NCBI GenBank assembly: GCA_964016885.1
Contig: OZ024755.1
Coordinates: forward strand, 28,768,001 to 28,832,000
Length of the DNA: 64,000 nucleotides
Direction: 5' to 3'
Source of the DNA: Eledone cirrhosa
Taxonomy: Eukaryota
How positions within the stretch are numbered: the stretch's first letter is position 1; the number at the start of each line of letters is the position of its first letter. Below are positions 260 through 50,031 of this stretch, in pieces. Both the position numbers and the translations under genes were made by a program. The notes beneath the pieces are model-generated. The model made no database searches, was not told the DNA's origin, and saw only the letters and a list, made by a program, of their open reading frames with translations.

Positions 260-435
260 CTCTTTTACTCTCTCACCTGTTCCAGCCATCCGGCTGATTT
301 GGGCCAGTATTGGCCCAGGCTATTTCCAACTTAATAGCAGCACCTGAAGATGAAAGAAAATTGCCTCAACACTTAATTGAAATCTTTAATTTTCAGTTTT
401 TAATTCCTATTAATTCTTTTTAATTGTAATACTCA

Positions 436-480
436 ACATTTGATAAGATGGATTTTACTAATACACCGAAACCGGTTATA
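436..480 (+). ncRNA. Degenerate hammerhead, U3-A8 core variant
   Basis: TTGATAA...GAAACCGGT with a palindromic stem III. Stems I and II are imperfect. Confidence 0.45.
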
Positions 481-611
481 CTTTATAAAACTCTTTTTTA
501 AAAGAATTGTACCCCTCAAATTTTCAATAATGTCACTTTGACGAATAAAAGAATGAAAAGAAAAAAGATAAATAGACCCTTAAATATAGTTCCCGTGCTA
601 TTTCCAATTTC

Positions 612-14311: not shown

Positions 14312-14358
14312 ATTTCTGGCAATATCATAACATACCACACAACGGGAGGACACATAAA

Positions 14359-14974: not shown

Positions 14975-15005
<31 letters not shown>

Positions 15006-15007
15006 AG

Positions 15008-15186
15008 AACGAGTAGGACCCCGACGGCTGAGCTCAAGCCGTTTCGACGGCTAGTCCAGAAATAGCCGTCGAAACGGCTTGGGCTCAGCCGTCGGGGTCC
15101 TACTCGTTCCTATTACCTCTACTACCCTAAGTATTGAGTACTTTGGTGCGTTATGGTCCACCTGGTTCCTTACCACATTTCCTTCG

Positions 15187-15190
<4 letters not shown>
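15008..15190 (+). mobile_element. Family B fold-back element in (TA)n
   Basis: A palindrome with about 45-bp arms contains the hammerhead 3' half GAAACGGCT...AGCCGTC-GGGGT and is followed by a tail ending CCTTCGTT-(TA)n. Confidence 0.8.
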
Positions 15191-15221
<31 letters not shown>

Positions 15222-15309
15222 GAGAGAGATAAGGAGAGAGAAAAAGAGATGATAGTGTGTTTTATTAGAAGGGTACTGCAATGCAAGTAGGACAGTTAGT
15301 ATTATAATA

Positions 15310-16840
15310 TAATTAATGTAACAAATGTGTTAGAATTTTACATTCAATTTGTTTAATAGACCTTAACATTTCGGGATAAAACCCCCTCATTAAAGGAGAG
15401 ATGAGGAAACTAGTTTGGAGCAAAGGGAATTGAGTCAACGTTACTCTGGAATAGTTTATTAGAAATGCCAGTATGAGAATGACAGACGTTTCTAGGGTGT
15501 GAATATGTTTCAGAGAGTTCTCTTCATTAATCTTTCCGCCGAGGTTAACTTTGCCTTTCATCCTTACGGGGTCGATAAAATAAAGTACCAGTAATGTACT
15601 GGGTAATTGCTGGCCTTGTGCCTAAAGTAGAAACAATTAATCTTTCATTAGCTAATGTGAAACAGATCTTATTTAAATTCGTTGAAACCTTTCTGTTCGA
15701 GAGAGCAGCTTGGATTTATATGTAGTTAGTAGCATTAGTAGAAGTATTCTGTCATGAAATCAAGTGATTAATAATTTATAAGAAGTACGGGAGCGGACGA
15801 CTGAAATGTAATGGGATTTGTACAACCAGGTGCTCATTTAACAGTGTGGTTTGTGCAACTATATATTTGTTGTAGATAAAATTAAAATTAATGTTTATGA
15901 GGGCGGTGTCGATCGTTATTTATTTTCAGGTTCTCTTAGCAAGTTAATTAGTAATTCTGTATGGCTCTTGTGTGGTTTGCTAATGCGGTGTTGTCTCCAC
16001 TCTCGAGCCTTTAGGTCTGTATTTATAGTGTCTTGTATTGGAATCTACTGTCATTTCCTTTTGGGAAGAAAATAAATAAAAGATTGGTAATGTATGTTTT
16101 GAAACGGCGAGCGAGTTTGAAATTATAAATAGAAGCTTTCGCCGTATTTTTGACTAAATAAACTTTGGCCTGATAGTGGGGTTTAAAACCATCAAAGAAA
16201 TGGAAAAATATGAGTATTGAAGTGTGTTTGAGGAAATATTGAGTAGGTGTTATGGAGTGTGGTCGTTTCTTATGTGGTCTGTTGTGGAGTAATTCTGTAT
16301 TTGGCTATTGTTTGGATATATTAGATGAACTATACTAGCGCATTGTGTAAGCCTTGGGTTAACTCGTTAATTTTGTTGGATATTGCTGTGTGCTCTATGT
16401 GTTGGTGGTATCACTATATCAATAATCATGTGAGAACTATTCTAGAGGAAATATTTTGAAACGTAGGTAAATTGTGATGTGTTTATCAGATAGTTTGTGT
16501 CATTTAGTGTTTCTTCTGCTGGGTTTTTCATGCCTATTGTGGCCGTGTAGTGTATGCCTTTATTTCTGTGTGTAAATTGTTTCGCTAATTCTAAGTGGTG
16601 TAATTATTTGTCTTATATCATGTGGGGTTTCAGAATTGTTGCCTGTGTGTAGGGGTTATAGTTGGTTATAGTTCGGAATGTTGAGTCTGTGTTAGATACG
16701 CCATATGCGGGTGTGTGTCTTGTAAACAGTAGGCCTTGTTGGTTTTGATAAGGCTGGATTTGGAAAACAATGTCTTTAGATAAAAATAACAGATCCATTC
16801 ATGTTAACGTCTCTTGGAAAACTGATGGTGCTGGCGTTTT
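15310..16840 (-). mobile_element. Decayed retroelement ending in a degenerate hammerhead (about 15360-15400), interrupted by a SINE at 15535-15638
   Basis: Strong A/C strand skew; TTAATGAGGGG...CCCGAAATGTTA; 16100-16220 is homologous to 32670-32810. No protein domain is securely recognised. Confidence 0.4.
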
Positions 16841-17849
16841 GTGTATTATATATATATATATGTGTGTGTGTGTATGTGTGTGTGCGTGTGTGTATATATA
16901 ATTATCCTTTCAGAACATAACGTATTTTTGAAGATTTAAGATAAAATTCATGTAGCTATAATTCGACTTTTCAATTAGAAAACTCGATCTTAAAATAATG
17001 ATTTTCTGTCTTTATTTGCTATGTATTCACCGGAAAACAAAATATTACATTTATTCGTTTAAGTGGTTATTTTCGCATCATTTGAGGATAAACACACTAT
17101 CCGAAATGATACCGATCGAAGTTTATGTGAAGCATGATGTAGAAAATTATTAAACAACCATTCTAATTTAAGGACGATCTTCCATTTGGCAACGGTAAAT
17201 AATATGTTTTTATGCAGATGATAACGTAATATAGATAAATAGATAAATTTAATGTATATACCTGTAGATTTGAAGTTAAGGGTTACTTTCGGAAAAAAAG
17301 TGTGACTTTTAATTCAAAACCTATAGTACTCTATTAATTTGGTTTGTAATATTTTAATATACGCTATGTCCTTCAGAGGATAGATGGCCTGAAGTTAGTA
17401 CTGAAAAGCAGATTCTCCGATATTTAAACGATACTGTGAACAAAGTAAAGGCGGCTTTAATAGATTTCAACTCAGAATGCAAAAGCGCGTAATTGAATAC
17501 CGCAATATATTTTGTCCATAGTCCTACTGATTCTGGTGGATTATCATCTTTATTGTCTTCATCATTAGTCAGTGTAGGCCAGCATATGTAGGATACATAT
17601 CATATTACAAACACAGCCGGTGCAAAGCATATGACTGACATATGGAAGGGGTGATATAATGCCATGCATCATTGTACTCAACAACGCCCTTAACTCACGT
17701 GCCTGTTGCTCACTGTTTTTATATAAATCTTCACGAGACTGTATATAGCAACTTGCCTAACGAATATTTCATCCATATACTATTATAAAGACGCTTAGGA
17801 AAAGTGAAATTTGTAGGAGGAAATGTAGAACATGAGACAAAATAGCTCT

Positions 17850-17962
17850 GGATGAAAGGCAAAGTTAACCTCAACAGGATTTGAACTCAGAGCGTGAAGG
17901 GACGTAACTCTATGTTGCAAAGCATGGCGTCGGACACTCCAACGATACTGCCAATCCACCGC
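17850..17962 (-). mobile_element. SINE 5' half
   Basis: Matches the SINE consensus. Confidence 0.8.
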
Positions 17963-18608
17963 TTAGGTGATAATAATTTCGACTCTTTTCTCAAATCCCA
18001 CCATATATATATATGTGTATATGGTTTAAGATATAAGTCCAAAAATGAGGCGCATTAGTTCCAATTTTAAAATAGCATAAACATGAAAACATCGCTATAT
18101 TTCATGACCAAGAGACGTAATATATAATTCAGAACAATTTAATTAAAAAGAAACTTCTTAAAATAGATATATGTCGGCAAATATCTTTCACATTAAGGCA
18201 GTCTGAAAGCATAAATATCAGAGGTATGACAATATTAAGAAAATATTTTCAAAATAAAATTGTGTGATGTTTTTTTCATATCAATATTCGTTTTAAACCT
18301 ATTAATATATGTATTTTAAGAATGATTTAAAGTAAGACATGTCTGCCAAATAACTATACCTTTTATTGGTATGGATGTGTTTATATTGATAAAAGAACTA
18401 TTTATTTGAAAAATATATTTAATGGATAAAAAATAAACATACTTAGAAGACATTTATTTTTTTTTTTTTAAATTCATTGATAAATTATAATTTAGATACC
18501 TGTTATAATCCATCATGTATATATATACTGTTTATGCAAATAAATATATCTTTCAAAATTATGAATAATTAATTTTCGCGGAAAGTTATTTTATTATTAT
18601 TATGGTTT

Positions 18609-18960
18609 TTGGCAGTATCGGTAGAACGCCGGACGCCATGCTTTGCAGCCCTTTATGGTCTGAGTTCAAATCCCGCCGAGGTTAACTTTGCCTTTCATCC
18701 TTACGGCGTCGATAAAATAAAGTACCAGTAATACACTGCGATAATTGCTGGCCTTGTGCCAAAAGTAGAAACAATTATTATTATTACTATTATTAAAGCA
18801 CCATGAATAATAATAATTATTATTTCTACTTTGGGCACAAAGCCAGCAATTACCCCAATGCATTACTGGTACTTTATTTTATCGACCCCATAAGGATGAA
18901 ATGCAAAGTTAACCTCGGTGGGATTTGAACTCAGACCATAAAGGGCCGTAACTCTTTGCT
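18609..18960. mobile_element. Two SINEs tail-to-tail (18609-18778 +, 18822-18960 -)
   Basis: Both match the SINE consensus. Confidence 0.85.
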
Positions 18961-19253
18961 GAATTGGAAAAAAATGTCTTTAACAGGTCCATTCATTTAG
19001 AATGGAGCTGGCGGAGAAAAGATTTGAGATTGGGCATATTGAAGGTACTAGAGTGGGAGTGAAAAATAGACTGGTGAGAAGTAGAAGGTGGTGTGAGAAG
19101 ATTGTAGTAGAGGAAAAGTTGTAGAGAGACGTGGAATATTTAAATGCAAGAAGCAAAGAACATTTCAAAGATACGAAAGATTTCCTAGTGGAAGTTCAGG
19201 TGTACTCCGGGCTAGTATCCAGTTTCGAGGTGAAAATCCAGTTTGAAAAGCCA

Positions 19254-19325
<72 letters not shown>

Positions 19326-19343
19326 GTGTAACACACAAGTTAT

Positions 19344-19641
19344 TATATATTGGTAAACGGAATAGAAAATGCTGACAAATTGTTCACAGTTGAAAAATAG
19401 TATGTTGTGGGTTCGTCTTGGGGAGAAGTGTTTAGACGGGGTCCGTATTTGTTAATAAAGTAAGATTCCTTACTGACGCTCTATCTCAAAATTATTTTTG
19501 AAAAGCATTTATAAATGCGCAACCGGTAGAAACTTAAAACCACAACTGAATACTAACCAATACAATTACTAATACTCTTTTATTCCTAATTAAACTATTT
19601 TTCAACTGTGAACAATTTGTCAGCATATTCTATTCCGTTTA

Positions 19642-19650
<9 letters not shown>
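19344..19650. mobile_element. Fold-back element with about 55-bp inverted arms and a degenerate hammerhead
   Basis: 19344-19400 is the reverse complement of 19595-19650; internal CTGACGC...GCAACCGGTA. Confidence 0.6.
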
Positions 19651-19726
<76 letters not shown>

Positions 19727-19932
19727 GCAATAAGGATTGCAGCTTTTTGTAAAGTTTATATAAAGTTTGATCATGCGATCGGATCCCAATTCTTAATGTA
19801 CACTTCTTCAGATGAGAGTCCCATCCAAACTACAGCACAAACCTGGAGAACAACCTAACGAGAGACGGACACAGTAACAGCATCGAGTGCTTCGACTAGC
19901 GTCATCACTAGTAACAAGTTACTCACCTAATA

Positions 19933-19974
<42 letters not shown>

Positions 19975-19978
<4 letters not shown>

Positions 19979-20285
19979 ATAATAATAAATTTCAAGACTA
20001 AAATCCAAAGATAAGGATAAATATATATCAAATATATAAGAACCGTAGAGCAAATATTTATTAAAATAACAGATTAAAGTTTAAGCAATGAATCGCTGCT
20101 TTCACCCTTAACGGGATCTTCTGAAACTAACAAAGTCAATCTGTAAACGCAGAAGTGACTCTTTTCCTGACTCTTTGACTTCTGCGTTTACAGATCGACT
20201 TTGTTAGTTTCAGAAGATCCCGTTAAGGGTGAAAGCAGCGATTCTTTGCTTAAACTTTAATCTGTTATTTTAATAAATATATATA
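19975..20285 (-). mobile_element. Family A fold-back element with CAGAAGA-core hammerhead-like fold (20206-20256 +, mirrored on -)
   Basis: About 105-bp inverted arms; AGTTT-CAGAAGA-tCCC..GGGt-GAAAGCA..TGCTT-AAACT; one-sided tail to (TA)n. Confidence 0.75.
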
Positions 20286-20289
20286 TATT

Positions 20290-20562
20290 CTACTGCTGGA
20301 TCCGGATGCATGAGTTCGAATCTAGCTGTCGAAACGGCCGGACCTCAGCCGTCGGGGTCCTGACTATTTTCCTATTACCCACTCTACAACCTTAAGTATT
20401 GAGTACTCTGGTGCGTTATGGTAGTAGAGTGGGTAATAGGAAAACAGTCAGGACCCCGACGGCTGAGCTCCGGCCATTTCGAAAGCTAGATTCGAACTCA
20501 TGCATTCGGATCTAGCTGTAGAAGCGGTCGGAGCTCAGCCGCCGGGGTCCTGACTATTTTCA
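20290..20562. mobile_element. Family B element with multiple inversions
   Basis: Three alternating-orientation copies of CTAGCTGTCGAAACGGCC...AGCCGTCGGGGTCC. Confidence 0.75.
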
Positions 20563-20697
20563 TATATATATACTGTGTGTATTTATACACTGTGTGTATA
20601 TATATCGTATATATATATATATATATGTATATACACTGTTTATATATATAACTGAACATATATATATATATATATACACTGTTTATATATATATAAC

Positions 20698-20728
<31 letters not shown>

Positions 20729-21051
20729 TCTAACTTAATCACATTTATTTTCATATGGCTGCTTTCTTTCGGTCTCTAGTATCCGACACCTGTTGTTATT
20801 TATAGCACGTAGTTATATTAGAGTTAAGGAGTATTTATAAAAGCGAACCGCCATTTTGTCTTTGAAGAATCATCCCAGATCATCTGTCAGACGTCAGTTT
20901 CTTCAGGGAACAAACATAAGAGAAGAATGTCAAAATTCTAGGTCGAGCATTGTTTGGAATTTAACTGCCGACTTCCCATGTACTATGAAGACCAAATACC
21001 AGGCAAAAGAGATGAGGGGAGAGATAGAGGATGAGAGAGAGAGAGAGAGAG

Positions 21052-21118
<67 letters not shown>

Positions 21119-21352
21119 TGGGGGGGGGGGGGTTAAACTAGATAGACAGATTTTATGAAAGGAGTAAACGAGATGCAAATAAATGGAAGAACTTTGTGTG
21201 TCACGATGTAGTAGACGAGCGAAATTTATAAAACATTTTCTGAAAGAAACCGAGTGGAAGAAATATTCAAACTATGGCATTCGACATATGTGTCCCAAAA
21301 CTGGGGAGTGTTAAACACCGAAAAGTAAGCATGCAAATACTACTACTACTAT

Positions 21353-21393
<41 letters not shown>

Positions 21394-21413
21394 ATAATAA
21401 TAATAATAATAAT

Positions 21414-21882
21414 AATTGTTTCTACTATTGGCACAAGGCCAGCAATTATCCCAGTGCGTTACTGGTACTTTATTTTATCGACCCCGTAAGGATGAAAGGC
21501 AAAGTTTACCTCGGCGGATTTGAATTCAGAATGGCAAGGGCCGTAACTCTATGCGTCAAAGCATGGCGTCCGACCCTCTACCGATACTGCCAATTCACCG
21601 CCCTTTGGTACTTTATTTTATCGACCTCGTAAGGATGAAAGACAATGTTAACCTCGGCGGATTTGAACTCAGAATGGCAAGGGCCCTAACTCTATGCGTC
21701 AAAGCATGGCGTCCGACCCTCTACCGATACTGCCAATTCACCGCCCTTTGGTACTTTATTTTATCGACCTCGTAAGGATGAAAGGCAACGTTAACCTCGG
21801 CGCATTTGAACTCAGAACGCAAAGGGCCATAACTATGCTGCAAAACATGGTGTCTGACGCTCTACCGATACTGCCAAACCAC
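21414..21882 (-). mobile_element. SINE tandem trimer with a 143-bp unit
   Basis: The units at 21551 and 21694 are nearly identical, and only one 3' tail is present. Confidence 0.85.
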
Positions 21883-22294
21883 TGATAATAATAATAATGA
21901 TGAGGGAAATTACCAAAAAAATATTCGTATCTTTTTATTGAATGATACTAAGCATCTTTATATTTTTATGTAGTCACAGTTTGAAAGCTGTCAGATATGT
22001 AATAAACAGTACGGTTTATGGATATCAATATTTGACCAGTCAGTAAACGTACAATTATTTTGTAGCTTAAAAGTACAGTATATTATAGCGGGCCACCCCT
22101 CTGTTTCAAAATAATCAGAGCTGTTGAATAATATAGTATTATTCATAATTAGCCACAAAGAAATGAGCCTCCGATACTGTGCATATTGGTTAGACATTTT
22201 CTTTTAACTTATCAGTGTCTATACACTATATACTATGAATTATTGCTGTCCATATGTACTGCACCTCGTACCAAAAATGATGAGCAAGGCTCTG

Positions 22295-22383
22295 CTAGAA
22301 TTCATCACTGTTGTTTTTATAATTATTCATGATTTGAACAGTGAATATGCTGTTTACCAGATCTTCAAGTGTCTGTTGAGTTT
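22295..22383 (-). CDS. Candidate terminal exon of an unknown gene
   Basis: Acceptor TACTGTCTTTACAG; open frame (E)TQQTLEDLVNSIFTVQIMNNYKNNSDEF*. No homology recognised. Confidence 0.15.
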
Positions 22384-22844
22384 CTGTAAAGACAGTAGAT
22401 AAAACGTAGTCTTCTCACTATATATATAAAGGGTCAATGCGGCTGGTCTTATATAGATGAGCAATCTGTGTTTCGAGATCTCTTTCTTCAAGACACTCAC
22501 TCCGAAATAATAGTATCTAGAAATCTATTGCGTGAACTGCGTGCTGTTAGTTTGTTTTGATCACTTTGAGTAATTTCGATCTTCATTAGAGCATAATTCG
22601 TTATTTCTTTCATTTCTTTCCGGCCTGTTATGTTTACAATATCTCTGGCAGCAAGGAGTTGTCTTGGAGACGATGGTACAAGTATCACGTCATCTTTCAT
22701 ACTCCATTTGCTGAATCATATTCCACGCATTAAATATGTGTATGGCACGTTCGGTATCAATTTAACACACACCGCACTTTATTTTCATTAAACTATGCGC
22801 ATTAAGCTGATCAGTCGGTATATAATTTAGAGCTGACATCTCAG

Positions 22845-23046
22845 ACTGAGGGTCTCCCAAGGGCCACATGGATCACATATGTGTTGTCTGAGGGCCACCC
22901 ACTACAACTAATTGCGCACCTTACAACTTTCTTTTTATATTACAAAGATAAAACATGCTCGCGCTGTAAAAACATTTGTGCGGGCCGCAGGTTTGCTTGT
23001 AAATGGTCGCATGCACCCCGCGAGCTACCTGTTTTACATGCCTGGT
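22845..23046. mobile_element. Possible degenerate hAT-type MITE
   Basis: GGGCCACA/GCGGGCCGCA subterminal motifs and a CATGCCTG end. Confidence 0.35.
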
Positions 23047-23335
23047 TTAGAGAACACTATATATTCTCAATAGTTCAATGGTGTAGCACAAAAGATTGAG
23101 ATACACAATCTTGATAAGGGCCAATAACCCCGAAACAATAGTAAATCTCTCTGATACCGCTGGAACCAAAGGATGGTATGTGATTCTTTGCTTGCAAACA
23201 AATTGAATATTAATAATTGTTTCTACTTTAGGCACTAGGCCAGCAATGACCCAGTGCATTACTGGTACTTTATTTTATCGACCCCGTAAGGATTATTAAT
23301 AATGTTATTATAACATTATTATCATTTACTCATGA

Positions 23336-23405
<70 letters not shown>

Positions 23406-23419
23406 GGGAGCTTCCAACA

Positions 23420-23670
23420 GTAATGGTTGCATTTTTTAAGGGTATGTCAATATTTATTTATAAAACTGATCTATATTATATTTTGTCTGATGAAAGCACA
23501 CCATAATTTAACTTGGTGTCCTTGAAATATGTATAATGAAATAAATATAGTTTTATAAATATAGTTTCCATTTGTTAATATCGTATGTTTACTCCAAATA
23601 CTTGTTGAGTGCTTTATATCAGTTATAAAAATATTTGCTTGTTGTATCCCAACAATTTAAATAGAACTTT

Positions 23671-23705
<35 letters not shown>

Positions 23706-24138
23706 GATATTAAATAAATGGAAACTATATTTATAAAACCATATTTATTTCATTATATATATTTCAGGGATATCATATTAAAAATATGTTATGCCTTCTT
23801 CAGACAAAATACAATATAAACAGTCTTATAAATAGATAGATTTGACATACCTTTCAACTTCAACTTCCATTTAAAAAGTTGATTTGATTTTTTAAATGGA
23901 AGTTGAAGTTGAAAGGTATGTCAAATCTATCTATTTATAAGACTGTTTATATTGTATTTTGTCTGAAGAAGGCATAACATATTTTTAATATGATATTCCA
24001 TATAATGAAATAAATATGGTTTTATAAATATAGTTTCCATTTATTTAATATCGTAAATATACTCCAAATACTTGTTGAGTGCTTTTATATCAGTTATAAA
24101 TATTTACTCGTTGTAACCCAACAATTTAAATAAAACTT

Positions 24139-24142
<4 letters not shown>
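23420..24142. mobile_element. Family D hammerhead elements (23420-23672 +; fold-back 23705-24142)
   Basis: TTTTGT-CTGATGA...GAAATATGTATA-ATGAAA; about 170-bp inverted arms around 23883; shared tail ending AACTTTTGC-(AT)n. Confidence 0.8.
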
Positions 24143-24191
<49 letters not shown>

Positions 24192-24493
24192 GCATATATA
24201 CATTTATATATGTGTGTGCGTTCGTTTGTGTATGTGTGAAAACTCCGAGAAGATACATGTCGTCGTCTAGACAGATGGTGCCCTATTTAACGAGAGGTAA
24301 AGCCCAATACACACAGGATATCATAAAAAGTCATACATTCTCAGAAAAATTGTACTTGAATGAAATCAGGTTTAGTAAACATTACACCGAGATAAAGATT
24401 GTGGCTGCATGACAGTTCAGTAACGTTAGAGAAAACATACTAGTGAAACAGGCTTGACAGCAGAATATATTATATATATTTATATATATATAT

Positions 24494-24942
24494 AAATCAG
24501 GAAAGAAGGTTGACATGGTTTGCTATACAAAAAAGGTTTTCAATCTCATAGCTGACAATTGTTTCTCTGAACTGGTAGGTCTAGAGATCGCTATTCGCTT
24601 ATTTTCACGTTACTCGATCGCCAATACTTTGTATATTTTGTATTGGCGATCGAGTAACGTGAAAATAAGCGAATAGCGATCTCTAGACCTACCAGTTCAG
24701 AGAAACAATTGTCAGCTATGAGATTAAAAACCTTTTTTGTATAGCAAACCATGTCAACCTTCTTTCCTGATTTATTATTACTCCAAGTGTTTACAACATA
24801 GGAATTACGGCATACCCGCAGCATCACTATGAAAACGCCTTGTTGAGTCAAACCAATCCAAGCGTTAATATCATCCACTACCTGGAATACCATAACTGGA
24901 CTATACTTAAGTGGACTGCATTTAACTATTATTTGTTACCCC

Positions 24943-24943
<1 letters not shown>
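24494..24943 (+). mobile_element. Fold-back element with about 135-bp arms and a tail
   Basis: Near-perfect palindrome at 24494-24773 with the hammerhead 3' half GAAACAATTGTC; (TA)n on both sides. Confidence 0.8.
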
Positions 24944-25003
<60 letters not shown>

Positions 25004-25147
25004 TATATACAAATTATCCCCTGTGATTGTTTCATGTGTTTATTTTAAATATATATATATATATATATGTCAATCAATTTCTAGTTGATATAAAATGTTC
25101 AGATCTATTCATTGGAATCTTTGAGCTTAACTCTACGGTGGTAATTT

Positions 25148-25200
<53 letters not shown>

Positions 25201-25663
25201 CTGTTTGGCACCTACCTTTTGGATTATCTCCACGTCGACCACTGGATGCTGGTCGCAGTCCTCAGTGGTACTTATACCCATCGCTGTCGTTGACAGAATT
25301 TAGCGGCTTTAACGGCTCTTCTAGAGATGGGTCTTGTCATATACCTTTGTTCATAGCTTCGTACTTATATGCACAGATACTTTTATATACTCACATATAC
25401 ACACACATTTATTCCTAGCTCGTCGTTGAGGCGTTATATTTAGCCGAAATTTCAAAGCATATTATGCACATAAAAAAATTCATTTTCTTGATCTGCTAGA
25501 GCCCGCATTAAGTGAGAACCTGCATCTTTCCTTCTTCATCGAGGAAAATCTTAAAGATTATCCAGCCATCAGAGTATTCTGTTTATTTTATTTACATATT
25601 GTCCAGGCATGCAGTTTTTCTATGATTAGGTCTGTTGGCGGCCCGCATTCCAAAATATCTCAT

Positions 25664-25692
25664 CCCGTGCAACGCCGAGTACCACTGCTAGT
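25664..25692 (+). mobile_element. Helitron-type 3' end
   Basis: CCCGTGCAACGCCGAG hairpin followed by CTAG|T. A related end lies at 27639-27667. Confidence 0.5.
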
Positions 25693-25702
25693 ATAATATA
25701 TG

Positions 25703-25740
<38 letters not shown>

Positions 25741-25742
<2 letters not shown>

Positions 25743-25910
25743 GATATTAAACAAATGGAAACTATATTTATAAAACCATATTTATTTTTATAAATATAGT
25801 TTCCATTTGTTTAATATCGTATATCTACTCCAAAAATTTGTCGAGTGCTTTATATCAGTTATAAAATATTTACTTGTTGTAACCCAACAATTTTAAATAA
25901 AACTTTTGCA
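25741..25910 (+). mobile_element. Family D short fold-back plus tail
   Basis: 35-bp arms; the tail is homologous to 24055-24142. Confidence 0.75.
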
Positions 25911-25916
25911 TATATG

Positions 25917-25987
<71 letters not shown>

Positions 25988-26006
25988 ATGCCTATATATG
26001 GTCTGT

Positions 26007-26102
26007 ACCACTTGATAAGTTCTGCTAGATTCTCGCCGTTCTACTACTGGTGGCTTAGTTCGGATCTAGCTGTCGAAATGGCCGGAGATCAGCCATCGTT
26101 GT
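26007..26102 (+). ncRNA. Family B hammerhead, UUGAUAA core
   Basis: TTGATAA; GCTAGAT/ATCTAGC; GAAATGGC..GCCATC. Confidence 0.55.
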
Positions 26103-26139
26103 TCTGACTCTTTTCCTATATATATATATATATATATAT

Positions 26140-31078: not shown

Positions 31079-31086
31079 ATATATAT

Positions 31087-31272
31087 AGGAAAATATTCAA
31101 GACTCTGACGGCAGAGCTCAAGCCGTTTCGCCGGCTATTTCTGGACCTAGAAATAGCCGTCGAAATTGCTTAAGCTCTGCCGTCATTTTCCTATTACCCA
31201 CTCTACTACCCTAAGTATTGAGTACTCTGCTGCGTTATGGTCCACCTGGTTCCTTACCACACCTCCTTCGTT
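31087..31272 (+). mobile_element. Family B fold-back element
   Basis: Homologous to 15008-15190. Confidence 0.8.
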
Positions 31273-32815: not shown

Positions 32816-34836
32816 TATAAATATATATATATATATAAATAAATATATATAAATATATAAATCAATAAATATATATAAATATATAAATAAATATACATAT
32901 ACATAAATAAATAAATAAATATATATATATATATATATATGTTTGTGTGTGGGCAAATTTGTTACTTTGTACACGCGTGTTTATTATGTTATTTGAAAAA
33001 AGTTGTATGACAAACATTACTTGATAAATTACTATACGAAGAAATAACATACATTACAGCATTTATCCTTCTCTCTGTTGTATTATTTAGAACGATTTTC
33101 ATAAGTAGCTACTTTTCAGCTTTTTTCTACATTGCTATAAACTCTTTTATTCTAGATTCGTTTTCTTTATTGCTATTGTTTCTTACTATATTTTATCACA
33201 TAAATAGAAGCACAGCTTCGAACCCTAGTAAAAAAACGAAACAATCGCCATTTTGTAAGAATCTGAATGGCTTTATGAAGTTTACATTAAGTATATAAGT
33301 GCAATCTCATATTTTGTTTAGTTGTCGGTATAAAGTACAAACAATACAAATATATCAAGGGAAGATTTAAAGATTATAAATAGAAATGTTGACTGTTCTG
33401 CAATGTTATGTCTCATATTTGTATAGCAAGTCCAGTATTGTAACAGAATAAAAGGTCGCATTATTCTCAATTTACTGTTGAGCCAATCTGCGTTTAAATT
33501 GTAAATCTCATTTTGTTAGGACATAAAAGTTGATAAATAATCCTAGATAGGTTTTCGAATAAAATATTCCAGCTTCTAACCACGAAATTCAAGTACTGAA
33601 CCAACATTTATACATATTTCAGATTAATTTCATTCATGGTAACGCTTCCTACAGAGATAATGCGAGAGTTATATACACAGCCTGCAGATGCAAATACGAA
33701 TATTTAAAGAAACACACGTCTCGCTCAAAACGATTTTATATTTTACTTGCAATTTTTCCATGTTTGCATGGTTAAGCAATTTCATATATCAAGATTCAGA
33801 GCTCAAATAATCTCTCTTAAAATGTCATTTCTATAAATCTATGCTGCAGCTAAAACGATGTTTCACTGGAAATTCTGCAAATAATTCAGAATTATAAATT
33901 GTATGTTTGAATGTATATATATATATAGTACAATAAGTAACATGAATATAACAACACTGCATAAGAATTAGAGAACTAGTGTTAAATATTTACTTGAGAA
34001 ATCTACGAACCAATTTAATTCAAAAGGTTAATGATACATTTTTGTAATCAACTTCAACTTTCTGACTCTAAAATTTATGCTTTTCTCAGTATAAAACAAT
34101 AATAAAAATAACCACCGTTTATTTGTAGTGGAAAAAATACATGTATATACTCATTTCTTTTATTTTTATGGACCAATATTTTTATGTCGGGAATCAAAAA
34201 TTTATCAATGGATATGATGTGTTTACAAAAGAAACTTTTATTTAAATATTTCTCATGAATAAAAATCAGGATCCTCTATTCTAAGCTACACGAACATGGG
34301 AGAATGCATTTTGAAATTTACAGTGTGATGCAAATATTTGCAGCAGCGTACGAATAGAAATGTCGCCAGTTATTTAAATTGTAAATAATAATCTCCAAAT
34401 CTACAGAAAATTACTATCAGTTGCGCACATATTTCAATTTACATTGAAAATAAATTTTATGTATATATTTATTTATCCTTCAGTTATCTTTTAAAATATG
34501 TTGAAATATAGTTTTGACATTTCATGACGATCATGGACTATTTTATTATTTAGTTCTTGCGCAAATAATATCTTAGTTAAAATGCACGTATGAAATAGTT
34601 CACAGGGTGATAGAACGTGATATTTATATGACAAAGGTGACCACTTATCCTTAGGATTCTGCTGTAGTTGGCACTATCAACGCACGACGGGGTTTCCTCC
34701 ACTCCCTCTCCCTCTTTCTTCTACTGGCAAGTTCAGCTACCCCTTCCTTCCACAAAATGCCATGATAGAATTGTGTGTCTCAACAACAAACTTTTGACCA
34801 ATCCTTGTGACAATCACTTTTACCATATATGGAATT

Positions 34837-34931
34837 ACCCCCTGAGAAGCTCGGCTATTGATGTACCAGGATAAAAATGTACATTTAGTCCAGAATTAGC
34901 CGCGAAACGGCTTGATCTCAGCCGTCGGGGT
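34837..34931 (+). ncRNA. Family B complete type-I hammerhead fold
   Basis: ACCCC-CTGAGAA-CGGCTA/TAGCCG-GAAACGGCT..AGCCGTC-GGGGT. Confidence 0.7.
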
Positions 34932-34941
34932 CCTACTCGTT

Positions 34942-35590
<649 letters not shown>

Positions 35591-38200: not shown

Positions 38201-38276
<76 letters not shown>

Positions 38277-38279
<3 letters not shown>

Positions 38280-38440
38280 AACAAGTAAGACGCCGACGGC
38301 TGAGCTCAAGCCGTTTCCAAACGGCTGGAGCTCAGCCGTCGGGGCCTTACTTGTTCCTATTACCCACTCTACTACCCTAAGTATTGAGTACTTTGGTGCG
38401 TTATGGTCCACGTGGTTCCTTACCACATTTCCTTCGTTTT
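38277..38440 (+). mobile_element. Family B fold-back element
   Basis: Palindrome plus tail, with TA flanks. Confidence 0.8.
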
Positions 38441-40319: not shown

Positions 40320-40685
40320 TTTTGGGGGACTTTCCTGTACATACTAACTGGACCATAAAAGCTAATAGACCAGATATCATTGTAAAAGTCCAACATAGCA
40401 AGGTCTGTTTAATGATTGATATGAGCTTCACATGTGATCACAACATCGCGGCGAAAGAATTTGACAAGCTAACAAAATATAAAGATCTGCTTATAGAAAT
40501 CGAAAAAAATGTGGCACCTCAAGGCCGTTAAAATACCAGTGATTGTAGGAACACAGTGACTGATCAAGAAAGGAACAGAACAGTATATGAGAATGATCCC
40601 TGGTTTACCCTCTCTGCAAAAGGTACTACAGAAACATGTTTTAACTGCTACTGCACACGTATTGAGAAGAGCACTATCTTTGTAA
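40320..40685 (+). mobile_element. R4/Dong-clade RLE C-terminal fragment
   Basis: DFPVHT..TIKANRPDII...MIDMS...KEFDKLTKYKDLLIEIEK/MWHLK..IPVIVG...LRRAL*. Confidence 0.8.
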
Positions 40686-40969
40686 GAATGACATCCATGC
40701 ATGTGTGGATGAGTGTGCGCGTGCGTGCAGGGATATGTTTTATTTATATGTATGTATATGTATGTATGTGTACATATGTGTATGTGTATGTATTTGTATG
40801 TGTGAGTGCATGTCATCATCATCGTCATCATCATCATCATCGTTTAACGCCCATGTTCCACGCTTGCATGGATATACATATGTTTGTGTATGTGTCTGTG
40901 TGTGTATGGAAGCGTGCGTATGTGTGTGTATGGATGTGTATAGGTGAGTATATATGTATACGTAATATA

Positions 40970-41207
40970 TAAGATCAAAAGATGGTTAAAGGAGTTCCAT
41001 GTATTTTATTATGCGCATTTCAAAAACAAACATCATCATGCAATAATATTTGTCTTTTCATCAGATAAAACAGGAGGACATGATATGAAGGCTAAAAAAA
41101 CACTTGTGGATAGTGCAGTTTTAAATCAACATATCAAACTGTAGAGGGCTTCTTATCCGATATCTGCATTGCTTTATTGTACTACAATAAAACTCACCTC
41201 CTACATA
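40970..41207 (-). mobile_element. Hammerhead element (ribozyme 41004-41070)
   Basis: Copy of 2395-2590. Confidence 0.8.
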
Positions 41208-41691
41208 TGTATACGTATATATATATATTTTTTTCTTTAAGCTGTAAATTATAATCAATTTAGTGTGTTAACCTTACCAATGTATACAGTAACAATATGT
41301 GCCCTATATGTCAGATATACACTTGGCATATAACGGAAACAATACTGAAGGAAAAAGAAAAAAAAAGAAAATTGATAATAATAATATATTTAGGACAGAA
41401 CAAAGGAAGGACACAACATAACAAAGGAGTCACTAACTAGGTCACAGTATGTGTGACGAAAGAGCTTTGTATATATATAAACAACCATCCGGTTATAGAA
41501 CCAACCAACCAATCAACCAACCGGAAATATATAAGTTGAAGTTAAAACCAACAGAAGTAAGTGTTTCTATTGAAAGCACGACGCTCCCAAAGTATAACAA
41601 TAAATATATATATATATATATATATAAATAATCTTTTTCCTTTCTACCATTTGTTTATATATATATCAAGTCGTGTGTTAAATTTCTACAT

Positions 41692-41726
<35 letters not shown>

Positions 41727-41788
41727 AATCTTTTTACTTTCTACCATTTGTTTTTATATATATCAAGTCGTGTGTTAAATTTCTACAT

Positions 41789-41878
<90 letters not shown>

Positions 41879-42002
41879 ATGTATATATATATATATTTGG
41901 AATGCGGAAAAGTAACACACGACTTGATATATATAAAAACAAATGGTAGAAAGGAAAAAGATTCTTTATATATATATATATATATTGATATATATAAAAA
42001 GA

Positions 42003-42392
42003 AATAGTAGAAAGGAAAAAGATTATTTCAGTAGAAAATGTTGAAGAGATTTTTTTCAGTGAGATATCAAAGCATTAATTTATTTACAATACCGGTTTCA
42101 GCATTAAATGTATTATCAATTGCGTATATGCAGAATATTGTTAGGTTGCATTCTCGGAATTAACATGTATGTGAAAATTAATTTTCTTCCCCTTTTTATT
42201 TTTATTTTCTTCATTATTATTATTATCACTATTTGTACAAATATGCAACTTAACAATATTCTGCATATCCACAATTGACAATGCAGTTAATGCTGAAACC
42301 GGTATTGTAAATAAATTAATATTTTGATATCTCACTGAAAAAAATCTCTTCAACATTTTCTACTGAAAGAATCCTTTTCCTTTCTACTATTT

Positions 42393-42395
<3 letters not shown>
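42003..42395. mobile_element. Fold-back element with U3-A8 hammerheads in both arms (42271-42308 +, 42085-42122 -)
   Basis: ACAA-TTGACAA-tGCA-gttaa-TGCt-GAAACCGGTA-TTGT-aAATAAA; about 140-bp arms. Confidence 0.85.
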
Positions 42396-42488
<93 letters not shown>

Positions 42489-42584
42489 AGATATGTTAAA
42501 CAAGATTCAATGAGTATATCAAAGAATGAGTTTTACAGTAGATTGGAAGAACTCTACAGAGAAATAATTTTCCAGAGTTATTAA

Positions 42585-42812
42585 TATTAAAATACAAATA
42601 TTAACCTTCATTAAACCTTGATTAAATCTTGATTAAATCTTATTCATTTAACATCTCAGGGTATGTCATGTATATCTTATTCATTTAACATCTCAGGGTA
42701 TGTCATGTATCATTATATTTTGTCTGATAAGGATGTACTGTTGTACCTCCGAAATATGTATAATAAAATCTAATTGATAAAAAGAACATCTATTTTATTA
42801 ATATTTGTATTT

Positions 42813-42815
<3 letters not shown>
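42585..42815 (+). mobile_element. Family D-related hammerhead element (42718-42768)
   Basis: TTTTGT-CTGATAA-GGA-GTAC..GTAC-TCC-GAAATATGTATA-ATAAAA. Confidence 0.65.
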
Positions 42816-42870
<55 letters not shown>

Positions 42871-42987
42871 GAGGTATATGATTTTTAATGCGATGAAATA
42901 CCAATGATGGTTGGCAAATCACTGACGAGGGACTAATTTTATCATATGTTAACCATATGCAACCACGCAGTTTTCCTCTTTCTTCTC

Positions 42988-43082
<95 letters not shown>

Positions 43083-43084
43083 TT

Positions 43085-43260
43085 ATTTATTTATTTAATA
43101 TAGACATAGCTTCTACAGGACCAGAACTGTTTCATTCAGAAGAAATTATCAGGAAAACCTTTTCTTCTGTATGAAACAGTTCTAGTCCTGTAGAAGCCAT
43201 TTCTATATTAAATATTTATAACCTGCTATGTACTGAGCACCTTACTTACTGTGGTTATTT
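43085..43260. mobile_element. Family F fold-back hammerhead element
   Basis: On the minus strand TTC-CTGATAA..GAAACAG..CTGTA-GAA; inverted arms around 43155. Confidence 0.65.
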
Positions 43261-44194
43261 CCGATTGAACTGGGGATATATACATATATATATAAACAAT
43301 GAATTAAAGACTTCGTTGATATGTATCATTACAGATACGAAGCACTCGACAGTAATATTTATCTGGAGTATTATGATAATAATACTAATAAACGGAAGAT
43401 ATAACTTTATAACATCACTATTTATTTCATTATATATATTTCGGGGATGCAAACATTTATGTTTAACATAAATCAGAGCATGCATTTAGGAAAATAAGAA
43501 AACAGTAGAAATGCTAATAGCATTTTCTCATGTGCGTGTGCGCGCGTGCGCGTGTGTTTGTGGTGCACGAACATTGTGAACGATGGAGGGTTAAATACAG
43601 ATAGATTATAGTTAAAAACATAAAAACAAAAATATATTTAGCGCAAAATCAAAAGAACTTTCAACGAACTCCGAGAAAATATTAGATCCTTGACGCATAA
43701 AACTGATCAGTTTTTACTCTGAGTTGTTGACACTCGTTTGATAGCTCTGGGCGTTGGCATGGAGACAATTTCTTTTTTGAAACTGTTTGTTTGTTTTTAC
43801 AAGATTTACTTTATTTTCATTTCGTCAGTATCACATACCATACACTTTTTTTTTCCTTGGCGATGTTTTAATTTCTTTGACTATATGTTTATTTGGTTGT
43901 CATGTATGTTATGTCATCATATTCTTTTATTATTTATAATAAATATTTATGTTATTATCTTCATCATTGTTATTATTATAGTAATTATACTATAAGATTT
44001 TATTACTCTTGTCGTTATTAACTCTTTTGTTATGGTTATGACGCTTAATCGCTTTGACGCTAATTAATATAATTTTCTTTGACACATTTTGCATGATATT
44101 TTTATATCACGCTATCATCTCTAGTATGGTCGTTATGATTATATATGTTATTACACCATTATATATGTTTGTATTATTAGTATTATTATTAATA

Positions 44195-44412
44195 ATGGTT
44201 TCTTATATAGGCACAAGGCCAGTAATTTGGGGCGAGGGGAAAGTCGATTAAATCGACCCCAGTGCGTGACTGGTACTTCATTTTATCGACCCCATAAGGA
44301 TGAAAGGCAAAGTTAACCTCGGCGGGATTTGAGCTCAGATCATTAAGAGCCGTAACTCTATGCTGCAAAGCATGGCGTCTGACCCTCTACCGATACTGCC
44401 AATCCACCGCCC
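44195..44412 (-). mobile_element. Full-length tRNA-derived SINE
   Basis: Matches the SINE consensus. Confidence 0.9.
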
Positions 44413-44446
44413 TAGTATTATTATTAATAATATTTTTATTCTTATT

Positions 44447-44880
44447 CTGGAAAGGCAGGTGAGGGTGGAGAGTGAAGTGCTGCCCCCCAGCACATTTCTA
44501 AAAGGTGGATGAATGTGGCGAGAATGGCCCGTGTGTGTGGGCCTACTCTGACCATGCGCCTATAGGGCTGGCTAATTTGAGGAGATGGGTGCTCTCCCCG
44601 GGTGCCCTAGAAGCGCAAGGTGGTTTAAGATTGATGGGGTACCTGAGTCACCCCTGGGTCGTCGACCCCCCCCCCCTAGAGGGGAGTTTATTTTGTTATA
44701 TTTATGCATAGTTTATTTTATATATTTTTCTATCTTCATTGTTAAATTAGTCTTGCCATTGTGCGCTTTTACTCGAGCTTATTGTAAACCCCCCCACTGT
44801 CCCTGTCTTTGTATTGTCCCCTACATGTCGGCCCTTGTAGTCAATAAAGAAAACATTATTATTATTATTATTATTATTTT
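44447..44880 (+). mobile_element. Tx1/L1-clade LINE 3' end with an (ATT)n tail
   Basis: RWMNVARMARVCGP is homologous to RWVREARMARVNGP of the 4845-5893 element; AATAAAGAAAAC(ATT)n. Confidence 0.8.
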
Positions 44881-45300
44881 TTTTTTTTTTTAAATTATTA
44901 TTATTATCATTGGTGTTGTTGTTATTATCGTTTGTTGTTGTTTGTGTTGCTACTACAGTTATGATTGCTACGCTCTTTTTTTTTTTTTGTTCCATTTACG
45001 TTTTTTACTATTATTTATATTTAAAAGAATTTTCAAGATAGAGTTACACTTTGTTCTCAGACAAAATATGCCACAGCAATTTGGGAAATATTTCTCTCGT
45101 TACAGGCGGAAGCAATGAGCTTACAACTGACTACTCGAAATTCCAAGCAATTGTACATATATATGATTAAATGACTATATATTCAAATTAGGAGATATCT
45201 TCACATGCAAAAAGTATTGTTAACCTAGGCGTACTCAGAAATTTACATAAAAATCATGTACGCGGCATGTCTGCCTTATGAGTATATCTCTTCGTATGTA

Positions 45301-45359
<59 letters not shown>

Positions 45360-45364
<5 letters not shown>

Positions 45365-45650
45365 TTCAAAATATTAATAAATATAGACATTCATGTAATC
45401 AAATATATTTATTATATATTTCAGAGGTACTGAGCTGTTTCATCAGTACGTCCTCATCAGATAAAATGAATTGATGTCTGACATACCTCAACTGTGCTGA
45501 TGGTTCAATTCCAGGAAACAGCACAGTACCTCTGAAATATGTTTACTAAAATATATTTGATTACATGAATATTTATTAATATTTTGAATTAATAATAATA
45601 ACTCATGAAAACTTCATTGTTGAGTGCTTCTAATCTATTGTAAATCTATA
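45360..45650. mobile_element. Family D-related fold-back (hammerhead 45408-45466 -)
   Basis: TTTAT-CTGATGA-G..GTACTGA/TCAGTAC-GAAAATATATA-ATAAA. Confidence 0.7.
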
Positions 45651-45687
45651 TTCATTGATTAATCAATTAACCTTGTTTAACTTTTGG

Positions 45688-45732
<45 letters not shown>

Positions 45733-45791
45733 TGTATGTATGTACACATGAACATATATACACACAAACATACACTAACACATATACTCAC

Positions 45792-45852
<61 letters not shown>

Positions 45853-46699
45853 CTACGGCCACTCATTCATGAGAGGATCGTGGGGGCAGAAACTTCAAAC
45901 ATACTTTCACCGGGTTTTGTCATCCATCACATAATTAGCTTATTGCGGCTCAGTGTTCTTTTATCCAATTTTATAGGGTAGGTTGTTTCTGTTGCGAGAA
46001 TTTACATCGGTTTATTATCCGGAAGTATGTGTGTAATTAAAGGGGGGGGGGGTTAATGCGTAAGCGGAGGTAACTAGCTGATTTTCATAACTAAATTATT
46101 GTTCTAACATACATTATAAGGTGTCTCAATTGAGTCCCTTCTACAGAAACAACCTACCCTATAAAATTGGATAAAAGAACACTGAGTCGCAATAAGCTAA
46201 AATAATTTAATTTAATGCATCAAACATCCAATACGGAATTATCGTTAATTATGTGATGGATGTATAAACTATATATTACATTTCCTGTATGTGAAAATGG
46301 TGGTGGATAAGAATACCATAACTCTCTTTTGCTTCTCCTTTCTATTTCTATTTTTCTGCGCACATACTTTTTTATCATATACAAAAAATACCTTACCACT
46401 GCAACCTCCATAATACTCTTGATTACCCACATAAAGTGCTTGTATTACATGTAACACCCTGCCACACAATAATCATATATAAATGAGACACACATAACTA
46501 ACGCATACAATAACTACTACATCTGACTAACAACCTATCCTCTAGCATTATCTATGTTAACTGCCGAATGTATTTTAATTTTGTTTTAATTTTAATTTTG
46601 TTGTAATTTTGATATTTTTCTTGACTTTGAATTTTAATTGCTATACGGAAGTAATATAATATAAAATATGTCACTCCACTGTACATCAATATATACATA

Positions 46700-47285: not shown

Positions 47286-47629
47286 TGTACACCAATTATT
47301 CTTTTGGGGCAAATGTATTCAATGTTCAGAGAGTGGGATTGGTCTCGTGCAAAGCCTTTCCTCACTTAAAAAGCTTCAAGCAGAGGCATAGCTTGATATA
47401 TCACATTTATTACGATGCAAATAAACACGTAAATAACAGTATGTGGCACACACACAAATAGAACATATATCTATGAATATTACATTCTTCGGGTGGTAAA
47501 AGTTCTGATTTCCTTATGGCCATTTCATGAGTCGAGGAGAACCATAACTTAAAATCGATCTAAACAATTGATTATCGATGACCAACTATCGATTTTGGTT
47601 ATGCCGTGGGAGACGCGAATCAATCATCA

Positions 47630-48155
47630 AAGGCAAAGCTCACTTCCGTGGGATTTAAACACAGAACATAAAGGGCAGTAACTATACGCCGAAAAGTGTG
47701 TTGACCAGCGCTCCATTGATACTACCAATTCCCCGGCCTTCAGATGATAATGGTTTCTGGTTCAACAATTTTGGGTGAAGTTAAAGTTTAATTAAATTTA
47801 CTCCGGTGTATTTCGGGTACTTTATTTTATCGACCCCGTAAGGATGAAAGGCAAAGCTAACCTCGGCGGGATTTGACCACAGAAGGTAAAGGGTTGTAAC
47901 TCTACGCCGAAAAACATGTTGTCCGACACTCCCCGACACGGGCACTCCTCTGCCCTTCAAATAATAATTGTTTCTACTTTAGGCACAAGGCCAGCAATTA
48001 CCCAGTGCATTACTGGTACTTTATTTTATCGACCCCGTAAGGATGAAAGGCAAAGCTAACCTCGGCGAGATTTGATCACAGAACGTAAAGGGTTGTAACT
48101 CTGCGCCGAAAAACATGTCCGACACTCTCCGACACTGGCATTCCCCTGCCCTTCA
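47630..48155 (-). mobile_element. Three tandem SINE copies
   Basis: Match the SINE consensus. Confidence 0.8.
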
Positions 48156-49480: not shown

Positions 49481-49639
49481 TCTGATAAAGCTATTCTCTT
49501 TCCTAATGCATACATAGCTACAATATTTGTAAAGCGTATTAGGTTTCCATGTAAAACGGGAGACTTAATCAATTTTAACACCTTAATCCCTTGTTATTCG
49601 CGCACTATTTGAACATAGATTACTTTTCATTTCATTAAC

Positions 49640-49962
49640 TTTATGCTTTTGTTCAAAACTGCTTTGAAACACTTTTGTTGCCAATGGCAACACTCAGCAG
49701 TGAGTGTATGTCTTATGCTTAACAGTTTATAATGAACTATTCCTTTATTATAGTACACCCAATGGCAACATTCAGCAGTGAGTATATGTGTTATGCGTAA
49801 GAGCTCATACTGAAGTATTCCTTGTATATAAAACCTCCAATGGAAACACTCACCAGTGAGGGTATGTCCTATGCTTAAGAGTTCATAATAAACTATTCCT
49901 TGTATATAATACGCCCAATGGCAACAGACAGCAGTGACAGTATGTCTTATTCTTAACAATTC
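49640..49962 (-). repeat. 78-bp tandem repeat derived from a mariner transposase
   Basis: CCAATGG recurs at 49681, 49759, 49837 and 49915. The unit translates as W..YIQGIVYYELLSIGHTLTAEC, like mariner GIVHYELL..G.TITAE.Y. Confidence 0.7.
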
Positions 49963-49967
49963 ATAAG

Positions 49968-50031
49968 GCGGTGCCCCGGCATGGCCGCAGTCTCATGACT
50001 GAAACCAGTAAAAGAATAAAATAATAAAGAA
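49968..50031 (+). mobile_element. SINE 3' tail fragment
   Basis: GGCGGTGCCCCGGCATGGCCGCAG...TGACTGAAACCAGTAAAAGAATAAAA, recalled as an octopus SINE 3' end. Confidence 0.6.

Follow-up and report, generated by a model that had tools for sequence, protein, structure and literature searches.

A high-copy minimal hammerhead family with a U3-A8 core at a probable Penelope-like 3'-end insertion

Hammerhead motifs with a U-A pair in place of the C3-G8 pair have already been described from Penelope-type elements: in the parts of the survey drawn upon here, U3-A8 cores are recorded in the Penelope-linked Cercyon elements, with about 1,300 S. mansoni motifs (Cervera and de la Pena, 2014; PMC4209133). 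According to the same parts, dual motifs lie on opposite strands, 100-700 bp apart, and lone or opposite-strand copies are the common state; a single S. mansoni minimal hammerhead (min-HHR) was inactive and dimers were weakly active, leading to a dimer model (PMC4209133). Its Fig. S3 aligns two S. mansoni U3-A8 rows, one Saccoglossus U3.G8 row and three mollusc rows, which are canonical (PMC4209133). For several natural hammerheads, the passage cited from Perreault et al. (2011; PMC3088659) describes covariation of the pair from C3-G8 to U3-A8, with reference to in vitro activity of such swaps. For a Penelope hammerhead, the cited sections of PMC11167929 report that C3G and G8C each abolish cleavage, that the double mutant partly restores it, and that cleavage is dispensable for insertion in vitro. 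Among the Penelope-like traits given in the cited section of PMC8557442 are insertion into (TA)n, a tail at one end only and an inverted copy with 5' truncation.

The locus considered here lies in a window, meaning the whole 64-kb stretch of DNA analysed, which is AT-rich (25-45% GC per 2 kb), has few long ORFs and many (TA)n tracts and dispersed repeats, and reads as animal intergenic DNA. A very abundant SINE-like repeat is found at 23211-23293 and in more than 20 other places of the window. The features discussed below are collected in Table 1.

Table 1. Hammerhead-like motifs and associated repeat pieces in the window
Feature	Position	Strand	Remarks
Minimal type I hammerhead	42271..42308	+	From descriptor scans, with the family majority from public runs
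Second hammerhead copy	42086..42123	-	U3-A8 core 42119-42113; predicted cut after A42090
Right arm	42243..42391	+	3' end of high-copy repeat family, probable Penelope-like pseudo-LTR tail
Left arm	42003..42151	-	Inverted copy of the right-arm family; probably more 5'-truncated
AT-rich centre	42152..42242	.	At least the last ~11 bases are similar to upstream sequence in another copy (by eye; X4 loose end before 42262)
(TA)n tract	42396..42483	.	3' end of right arm; right side without tail
Short extra 3'-end piece of the same family	41899..41966	-	~45-base tail past a short TA run
Two more short 3'-end pieces with tail	41627..41791	+	First bases 41627 and 41724; flanked by (TA)n tracts
Degenerate hammerhead-like site	432..485	+	UUGAUAA at 440, ACCGGU palindrome, helix I of 2 bp
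Doubtful site	23103..23150	+	UUGAUAA at 23111, 3-bp helix II, imperfect palindrome, no helix I (by reading; in no descriptor output)
Probable decayed full-size type I hammerhead of a different family	26005..26104	+	Read by hand; fails the looser descriptor
Relative of the 26012 site in the same register	34836..34931	+	Core CUGAGAA (C3.A8), 5-bp helix I, 5-bp helix III
Canonical sites	2494, 23487, 23803, 26291, 30875, 35159, 35492, 38717, 41064, 45460, 52831, 61578	+, +, -, +, +, +, +, -, -, -, +, -	

The layout of the locus can be read directly: two inverted arms stand head to head and agree without gaps at 139 of 149 bases, their hammerheads read outwards from the centre, and the arms point apart and end in (TA)n. 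Such an arrangement corresponds to the inverted 5'-truncated copy adjoining the 5' end that characterizes Penelope-like insertions. The optional one-sided tail of such elements is likewise present, being confined to the left-side pieces, and the tail of the piece at 41899..41966 recurs as a loose end at 42392 in one of the public runs described below (X3). The ends of 42003-42391 sit in (TA)n, where a target-site duplication is unreadable. No second copy of the family on the same strand was found in the 64-kb window, the only other copy being on the opposite strand; head-to-tail tandem units, a feature of retrozymes, are absent from the locus, and single contigs only hint at a local duplication of the family. 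We consider it likely, with a probability of roughly 0.8, that this is a dead insertion of the 3' end of a high-copy Penelope-like family, consisting of a truncated copy, an inverted truncated copy and tail pieces, and that the source motif was U3-A8. A MITE-like fold-back DNA element with ~150-bp terminal inverted repeats in TA, whose hammerhead likeness is inherited or incidental, would account for arms that are 93% alike around a 91-base centre with (TA)n on both sides; yet the ends of 42003-42391 are asymmetric, tail pieces being confined to the left, single 3' pieces adjoin the pair, and the head-to-head layout recurs in canonical-core families unrelated to this one, which makes this interpretation very unlikely. 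One such canonical-core pair lies at 23803(-)/23963(+).

The hammerhead motif itself is directly visible in both arms, each of which displays a UUGAYAA core, a U.U apposition, a short helix II, GAAA, an ACCGGU palindrome and a GUA triplet. In the right arm, helix I is formed by 42271-74 with 42305-08, the core from U3 to A9 occupies 42275-81, the U.U is followed by a 3-bp helix II (42283-85/42291-93), and GAAA (42295-98) leads into the palindrome (42298-42303) and the GUA triplet, with a predicted cut after A42304. Both arms retain U4 G5 A6 N7, A9, G12 A13 A14, A15.1-U16.1 and H17, and the Watson-Crick 3-8 pair is U3-A8 in both as well as in the family majority. The sequence-only reading had held that TTGACAA and TTGATAA replace CTGANGA in the two arms, and we find exactly this, in hammerhead register, at 42275-81 (+) and 42119-42113 (-). 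Its further statement that all stems are intact did not survive inspection. Helix I is of 4 bp in both arms, drawn from the 5' and 3' flanks, and the base of helix II is U.U in both instead of G10.1-C11.1, with a G-C position next. Helix II has 3 bp in the right arm, a broken first pair in the left arm and 4 bp by per-position family majority: the left arm carries A at 42111 (G in the right arm), turning the first pair into A.C, and the right arm carries G at 42286 (U in 99-99.8% of the family), by which the fourth pair is lost. The U.U at the base of helix II also occurs in three of the 12 canonical-core sites of the window (26291, 35159 and 61578). As in other min-HHRs, there is no stable helix III, its place being taken in both arms by the ACCGGU palindrome.

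Of six public runs, three contain part of the stretch. The state of positions 3 and 8 in the family at large was read from four of the six, compared with 42152-42395 at 80% likeness, with 42152-42238 masked; X1-X3 represent one sample, which may be the one that the window came from, and X4, whose records are mostly below 90% alike, a second sample and study. The right-arm region was matched by 543, 620 and 557 contigs in X1-X3 and by 445 reads in X4. Among the contig pieces listed, none extends past the arm. C at 42275 (position 3) accounts for 0.4, 0.5 and 0.5% of depth in X1-X3 and for 9 of 199 reads in X4, and at position 8 no alternative letter reaches 3% in any of the four runs; since position 8 is invariant at this level, C3.A8 mismatches are a likelier explanation of the few C3 records than C3-G8 members would be. 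The same holds in all four runs for 42276-78, 42280-81, 42283-85, 42288-42301 and 42303-13, where no alternative reaches 3%. Within the motif, the sites that do vary are N7, some in loop II and helix I, 10.1 and, weakly, 16.2: G at 42271 is found in 93-97% of the family, giving G.U instead of A-U in helix I; a variant at 10.1 turns U to A and thereby yields an A-U pair; and G at 16.2 is replaced in ~1% of contig depth and in 3 of 31 reads. In X4, where the counts derive from few read starts, probably 2-3 loci, and were tallied per position, 179 of 194 reads have G at 42274 and 150 reads show a loose end beginning CC at 42305, which suggests a compensatory change from A-U to G-C in helix I of a divergent subfamily that has kept U3-A8. 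The depth summed over the motif is ~13,000-26,000, as against 5-13 for single listed contigs, and suggests a family of hundreds to thousands of copies, the summed depth itself not being a copy number. These comparisons are to be read with the depth dips at 42269-42286 and the tendency of contigs to drop rare variants in mind.

U3-A8 is thus the real, family-wide founder state at this locus. That the family consensus might be CTGANGA, the outcome by which the sequence-only reading proposed to be refuted, was checked in the four runs from two samples and does not hold, the majority being U3-A8 throughout; because U3-A8 is the family state, the cores of the two arms are not decayed CUGANGA. The covariation at 3/8 that the same reading had claimed is not borne out: no C3-G8 members were found within the family, the contrast exists only between families, and the two arms, as copies of one family, do not constitute independent covariation. 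Its suggestion of a selected ribozyme function fares better in part, as the family-wide U3-A8 state is compatible with a source element in which the motif stayed functional, whereas no covariation is seen within the family. The invariance of the core is itself no proof of selection, because the family is fairly uniform (most contigs are 90-99% alike), the flanks vary little too, and the matching of reads requires similarity.

In mechanistic terms, we propose that the pseudo-LTR of the source element would carry a minimal type I hammerhead with U-A for C-G as the 3-8 pair, and that the tandem pseudo-LTRs of that element would supply its partner motif. In the tandem transcript of the source, two same-strand motifs could then pair via ACCGGU to make up helix III and would be cut after GUA. 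The motif is probably functional in the source element, its cleavage being predicted from sequence. At the present locus the copies are on opposite strands, whereby a transcript would contain one sense copy only, and a transcript spanning both arms would form a ~150-bp hairpin burying the motif; for both reasons the copies here are probably inert, as far as such modelling goes. Nearest-neighbour energies, which ignore the core contacts, give the monomer 42271-42308 a hammerhead fold of +4.6 kcal/mol (-0.6 without helix III) against an MFE of -6.7, and a probability for that fold of ~1e-9 to 1e-5. The ACCGGU-paired dimer comes to -11.1 kcal/mol and an alternative dimer, at -18.6, is more stable; the monomer and dimer values agree with the dimer model of PMC4209133. 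In the fold of the whole element, at about -202 to -206 kcal/mol, the motif is paired throughout. As such motifs need a dimer, the monomer 42271-42308 would likely be cleavage-negative whatever its core. It is very improbable that both copies are themselves active, selected ribozymes: in the right arm no core nucleotide is missing and helices I and II run to 4 and 3 bp, and a dimer in trans via the palindrome is possible on paper at the energy just given, but both copies bear private damage in helix II, the window has no same-strand partner, the monomer fold is as improbable as stated and the long hairpin sequesters the motif, and, in the cited part of PMC4209133, a single S. mansoni min-HHR is uncleaved and dimers show low cleavage.

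Coding sequence offers little further guidance. No RT or GIY-YIG match was found with Pfam in 150 of the 249 stop-free segments (at least 62 aa) of the window, nor in 18 short read-through pieces, which gave one weak unrelated match; hence it is the architecture that points to a Penelope link, and a missing ORF is expected of copies that are short and 5'-truncated. The remnant at 42485-42658, which by eye we took to resemble an endonuclease C-terminus, yielded two unrelated proteins in phmmer and no match in a word search, and with no relative found we dropped that assignment as unsupported. As a separate observation, the same 150 segments contain a Transposase_1 match (49630-49992 (-), E 2e-6) and a weak zf-RVT match (5457-5825 (-), E 4e-4), besides four sub-cutoff matches; these two appear to be remnants of a DNA transposon and a LINE, respectively. 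An alternative origin, as a short non-autonomous, retrozyme-like or SINE-like element moved in trans by Penelope-like proteins, would agree with the lack of coding sequence upstream of either arm, with the high depth throughout 42239-42395, and with the proposal, in the cited part of bioRxiv 10.64898/2026.07.22.740005, that retrozymes are pseudo-LTR derivatives. We regard it as unlikely, given that the locus has no tandem array, that non-LTR retrozymes are described in the cited part of PMC7229834 as tandem units of 170-400 nt with canonical type I motifs, and that the loose ends before 42262 vary among copies, as expected from variable 5' truncation.

The sequence-only reading had further noted the same core at 440, 23111 and 26012. 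TTGATAA followed by GAAA is indeed present at all three, in flanks found unrelated by blastn within the window, although 440 and 23111 are deficient in helix I. At 440, helix II comprises 6 pairs with 2 mismatches, and neither 440 nor 23111 has relatives around the motif in the window; as U3-A8 hammerhead cores both are unproven candidates, which may be decayed canonical cores or chance matches. At 26012 a U3-A8 core is probable on the evidence of the following elements: the core itself (26012-18), a long helix II, GAAA at 26075-78, a 5-bp helix III and an AUC triplet at 26095-97, with an interrupted helix I of 5 out of 7 pairs. Its 3' half is part of a repeat family of which the window has several copies, which indicates the 5-bp helix III and the NUC triplet; most copies of this family have an inverted junction inside helix II, and the one at 34842 retains the 5' half in register. 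Since A8 is common to both and position 3 differs, the simplest reading of 26012/34842 would be a U3-A8 family; a one-base deletion in a canonical core would also fit the core at 34842. A repeat family of higher GC content, in which helix III is full (5 bp) and the triplet is GUC, was also observed, at 14991-15112, 20313-20580, 31086-31200, 34836-34946 and 38275-38360, and in most of its copies an inverted junction in helix II produces near-perfect palindromes without the 5' half of the core.

Descriptor scans place these sites in the context of the whole window. Run over both strands, the strict descriptor identified C3-G8 at eight sites and U3-A8 at one (42275), where 60 local shuffles averaged 0.0 and 0.02; the looser one returned ten C3-G8, three U3-A8 (both arms and 18252), one U3.G8 and one C3.A8, where 40 shuffles gave means of 0.05, 0.33, 0.12 and 0.23, respectively. 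The match at 18252 was rejected as being at shuffle level (mean 0.33). When the requirement for helix I is dropped, the eight U3-A8 matches do not stand out from the shuffles (mean 5.0, maximum 11). The pattern TTGAYAAG..CGAAA, picked post hoc with its sites already seen, occurs at four sites (440, 23111, 26012 and 40461) against a mean of 0.3, four being reached in none of 200 shuffles, and the looser TTGAYAA..GAAA gives 19 matches against a mean of 10.6 and a shuffle maximum of 19. The site at 40461 (TTGACAA) was rejected: it lies inside a reading frame resembling the end of a LINE endonuclease, with no database match. The frameshifted frame at 40330-40690 (+) we take to resemble the restriction-like endonuclease at the C-terminus of an R2/R4-type LINE; Pfam gave no match for it. 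Good stems also accompany cores with one mismatch in the window, namely C3.A8 at 42724 and 34842 and U3.G8 at 47630, so that a lone TTGATAA site proves little. A (TA)5+ tract is found within 250 bases downstream of 18 of 20 hammerhead-like sites, compared with 32% of random positions.

Outside the window, a metagenome scan with a 20-base motif returned three loci, each matching the motif alone, and a scan of viral contigs returned 120 loci with 73 distinct matches, all at background level; in 72 of the 73 core-plus-GAAACCGGTA matches, one stem or the other has no more than 1 bp. The remaining distinct viral UUGAYAA..GAAACCGGUA match combines a 6-bp helix I with a 2-bp helix II and is probably due to chance. 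In one comparison alignment (A3), the 3-8 column is C-G in 5 of 6. That the UUGAYAA cores of the two arms are decayed CUGANGA or chance matches might be argued from the single-mismatch cores that arise in the window (42724, 47630), from the frequency of stemless core-plus-GAAACCGGTA matches in viral contigs, and from a U3-A8 count (8) that is not above shuffles once helix I is waived; with U3-A8 in the majority in four of four runs from two samples, this is refuted for the present family, and we assign it a negligible chance. Rfam gave no match at gathering score over the whole window, and at E up to 10 none of its 44 matches in 41000-46000 is to a hammerhead family. The contention that canonical searches would miss the swapped core is therefore true as far as it goes and not special to it: the canonical-core hammerheads of the window are missed as well, so the swap is not the reason.

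The canonical-core sites deserve mention in their own right. At least 12 minimal type I hammerheads with CUGANGA cores, of several families, are present in the 64 kb, none found by Rfam, and a U precedes GAAA in nine of the ten canonical sites passing the looser descriptor. Three copies of one such family stand tail-to-tail and head-to-head around (TA)n in 23375-24140, the copy at 23963 having lost the normal GAAA and the palindrome. Two mismatched examples were also seen: a hammerhead at 42716-42765 (+), with a 7-bp helix I and a C3.A8 core, is related to 45460 and 23487 and has the remnant at 42485-42658 upstream of it, and a hammerhead-like sequence at 47510-47640 (-) combines a U3.G8 core with a helix II region of ~95 bases and a perfect palindrome of 8 bases.

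Beyond the single family, one may ask whether separate changes of the 3-8 pair, from C-G to U-A, took place in two to four unrelated hammerhead-bearing retroelement families (that of the two arms, the long-helix-III family of 26012/34842, and perhaps 440 and 23111), each becoming fixed, with mismatched intermediates never founding a family. We put this forward as a tentative proposition that is rather doubtful at present. Were it true, such independent switches would amount to a natural experiment, indicating that cleavage is selected in vivo in Penelope-like elements, in contrast with the cited finding that core mutants do not impair insertion in vitro (PMC11167929). A genome with both C3-G8 and U3-A8 families would allow the count of paired versus mismatched founder cores to serve as a test of selection.

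Set beside the published systems, the locus is closest to the U3-A8 min-HHRs of the S. mansoni Cercyon elements as presented in the cited parts of PMC4209133, sharing the type I form, the U3-A8 pair, a helix I of 4-5 bp and a palindromic helix III region, and, at the level of the genome, many families that exist mostly as lone or opposite-strand copies. Unlike in S. mansoni, the short helix II (3-4 bp) closes with U.U here, and CCGG is inserted in helix III, as in insect variants; in the S. mansoni U3-A8 rows of that paper an extra A brings the core to 8 bases and loop 3 lacks an insert, and the present copies, unlike the Cercyon elements, are without a linked ORF. The small-helix-III hammerheads of Penelope-like elements (PLEs) from Drosophila willistoni, Aedes, rotifers and shrimp, as aligned in Figs. 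S3 and S5 of the same paper (PMC4209133), have a comparable short palindromic loop 3, and the D. willistoni row in Fig. S3 has the extra U before GAAA and apparently the same U.U at the base of helix II; these rows have the canonical CUGANGA core, unlike the family described here (PMC4209133). With the variants of Perreault et al. (2011; PMC3088659) it shares the U3-A8 swap, the difference being that the passage cited has no example from a Penelope-like element or of the dimer type and refers for activity to data on other constructs. Non-LTR retrozymes resemble it as high-copy, non-coding repeats with type I hammerheads in animals, judging from the cited parts of PMC7229834 and bioRxiv 10.64898/2026.07.22.740005, and differ in their head-to-tail, canonical motifs from the head-to-head pair with a minimal motif seen here. 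In a literature search that took in little of the subscription literature, we found no published description of this family and no assay of the U3-A8 minimal motif. Penelope hammerheads show low activity in vitro, and in one in vitro system cleavage was dispensable for insertion. The U3-A8 swap is already known in Penelope-type hammerheads, and the locus is a new example of it, adding one high-copy U3-A8 minimal hammerhead family to those described and serving as a reminder that descriptors should admit U3-A8.
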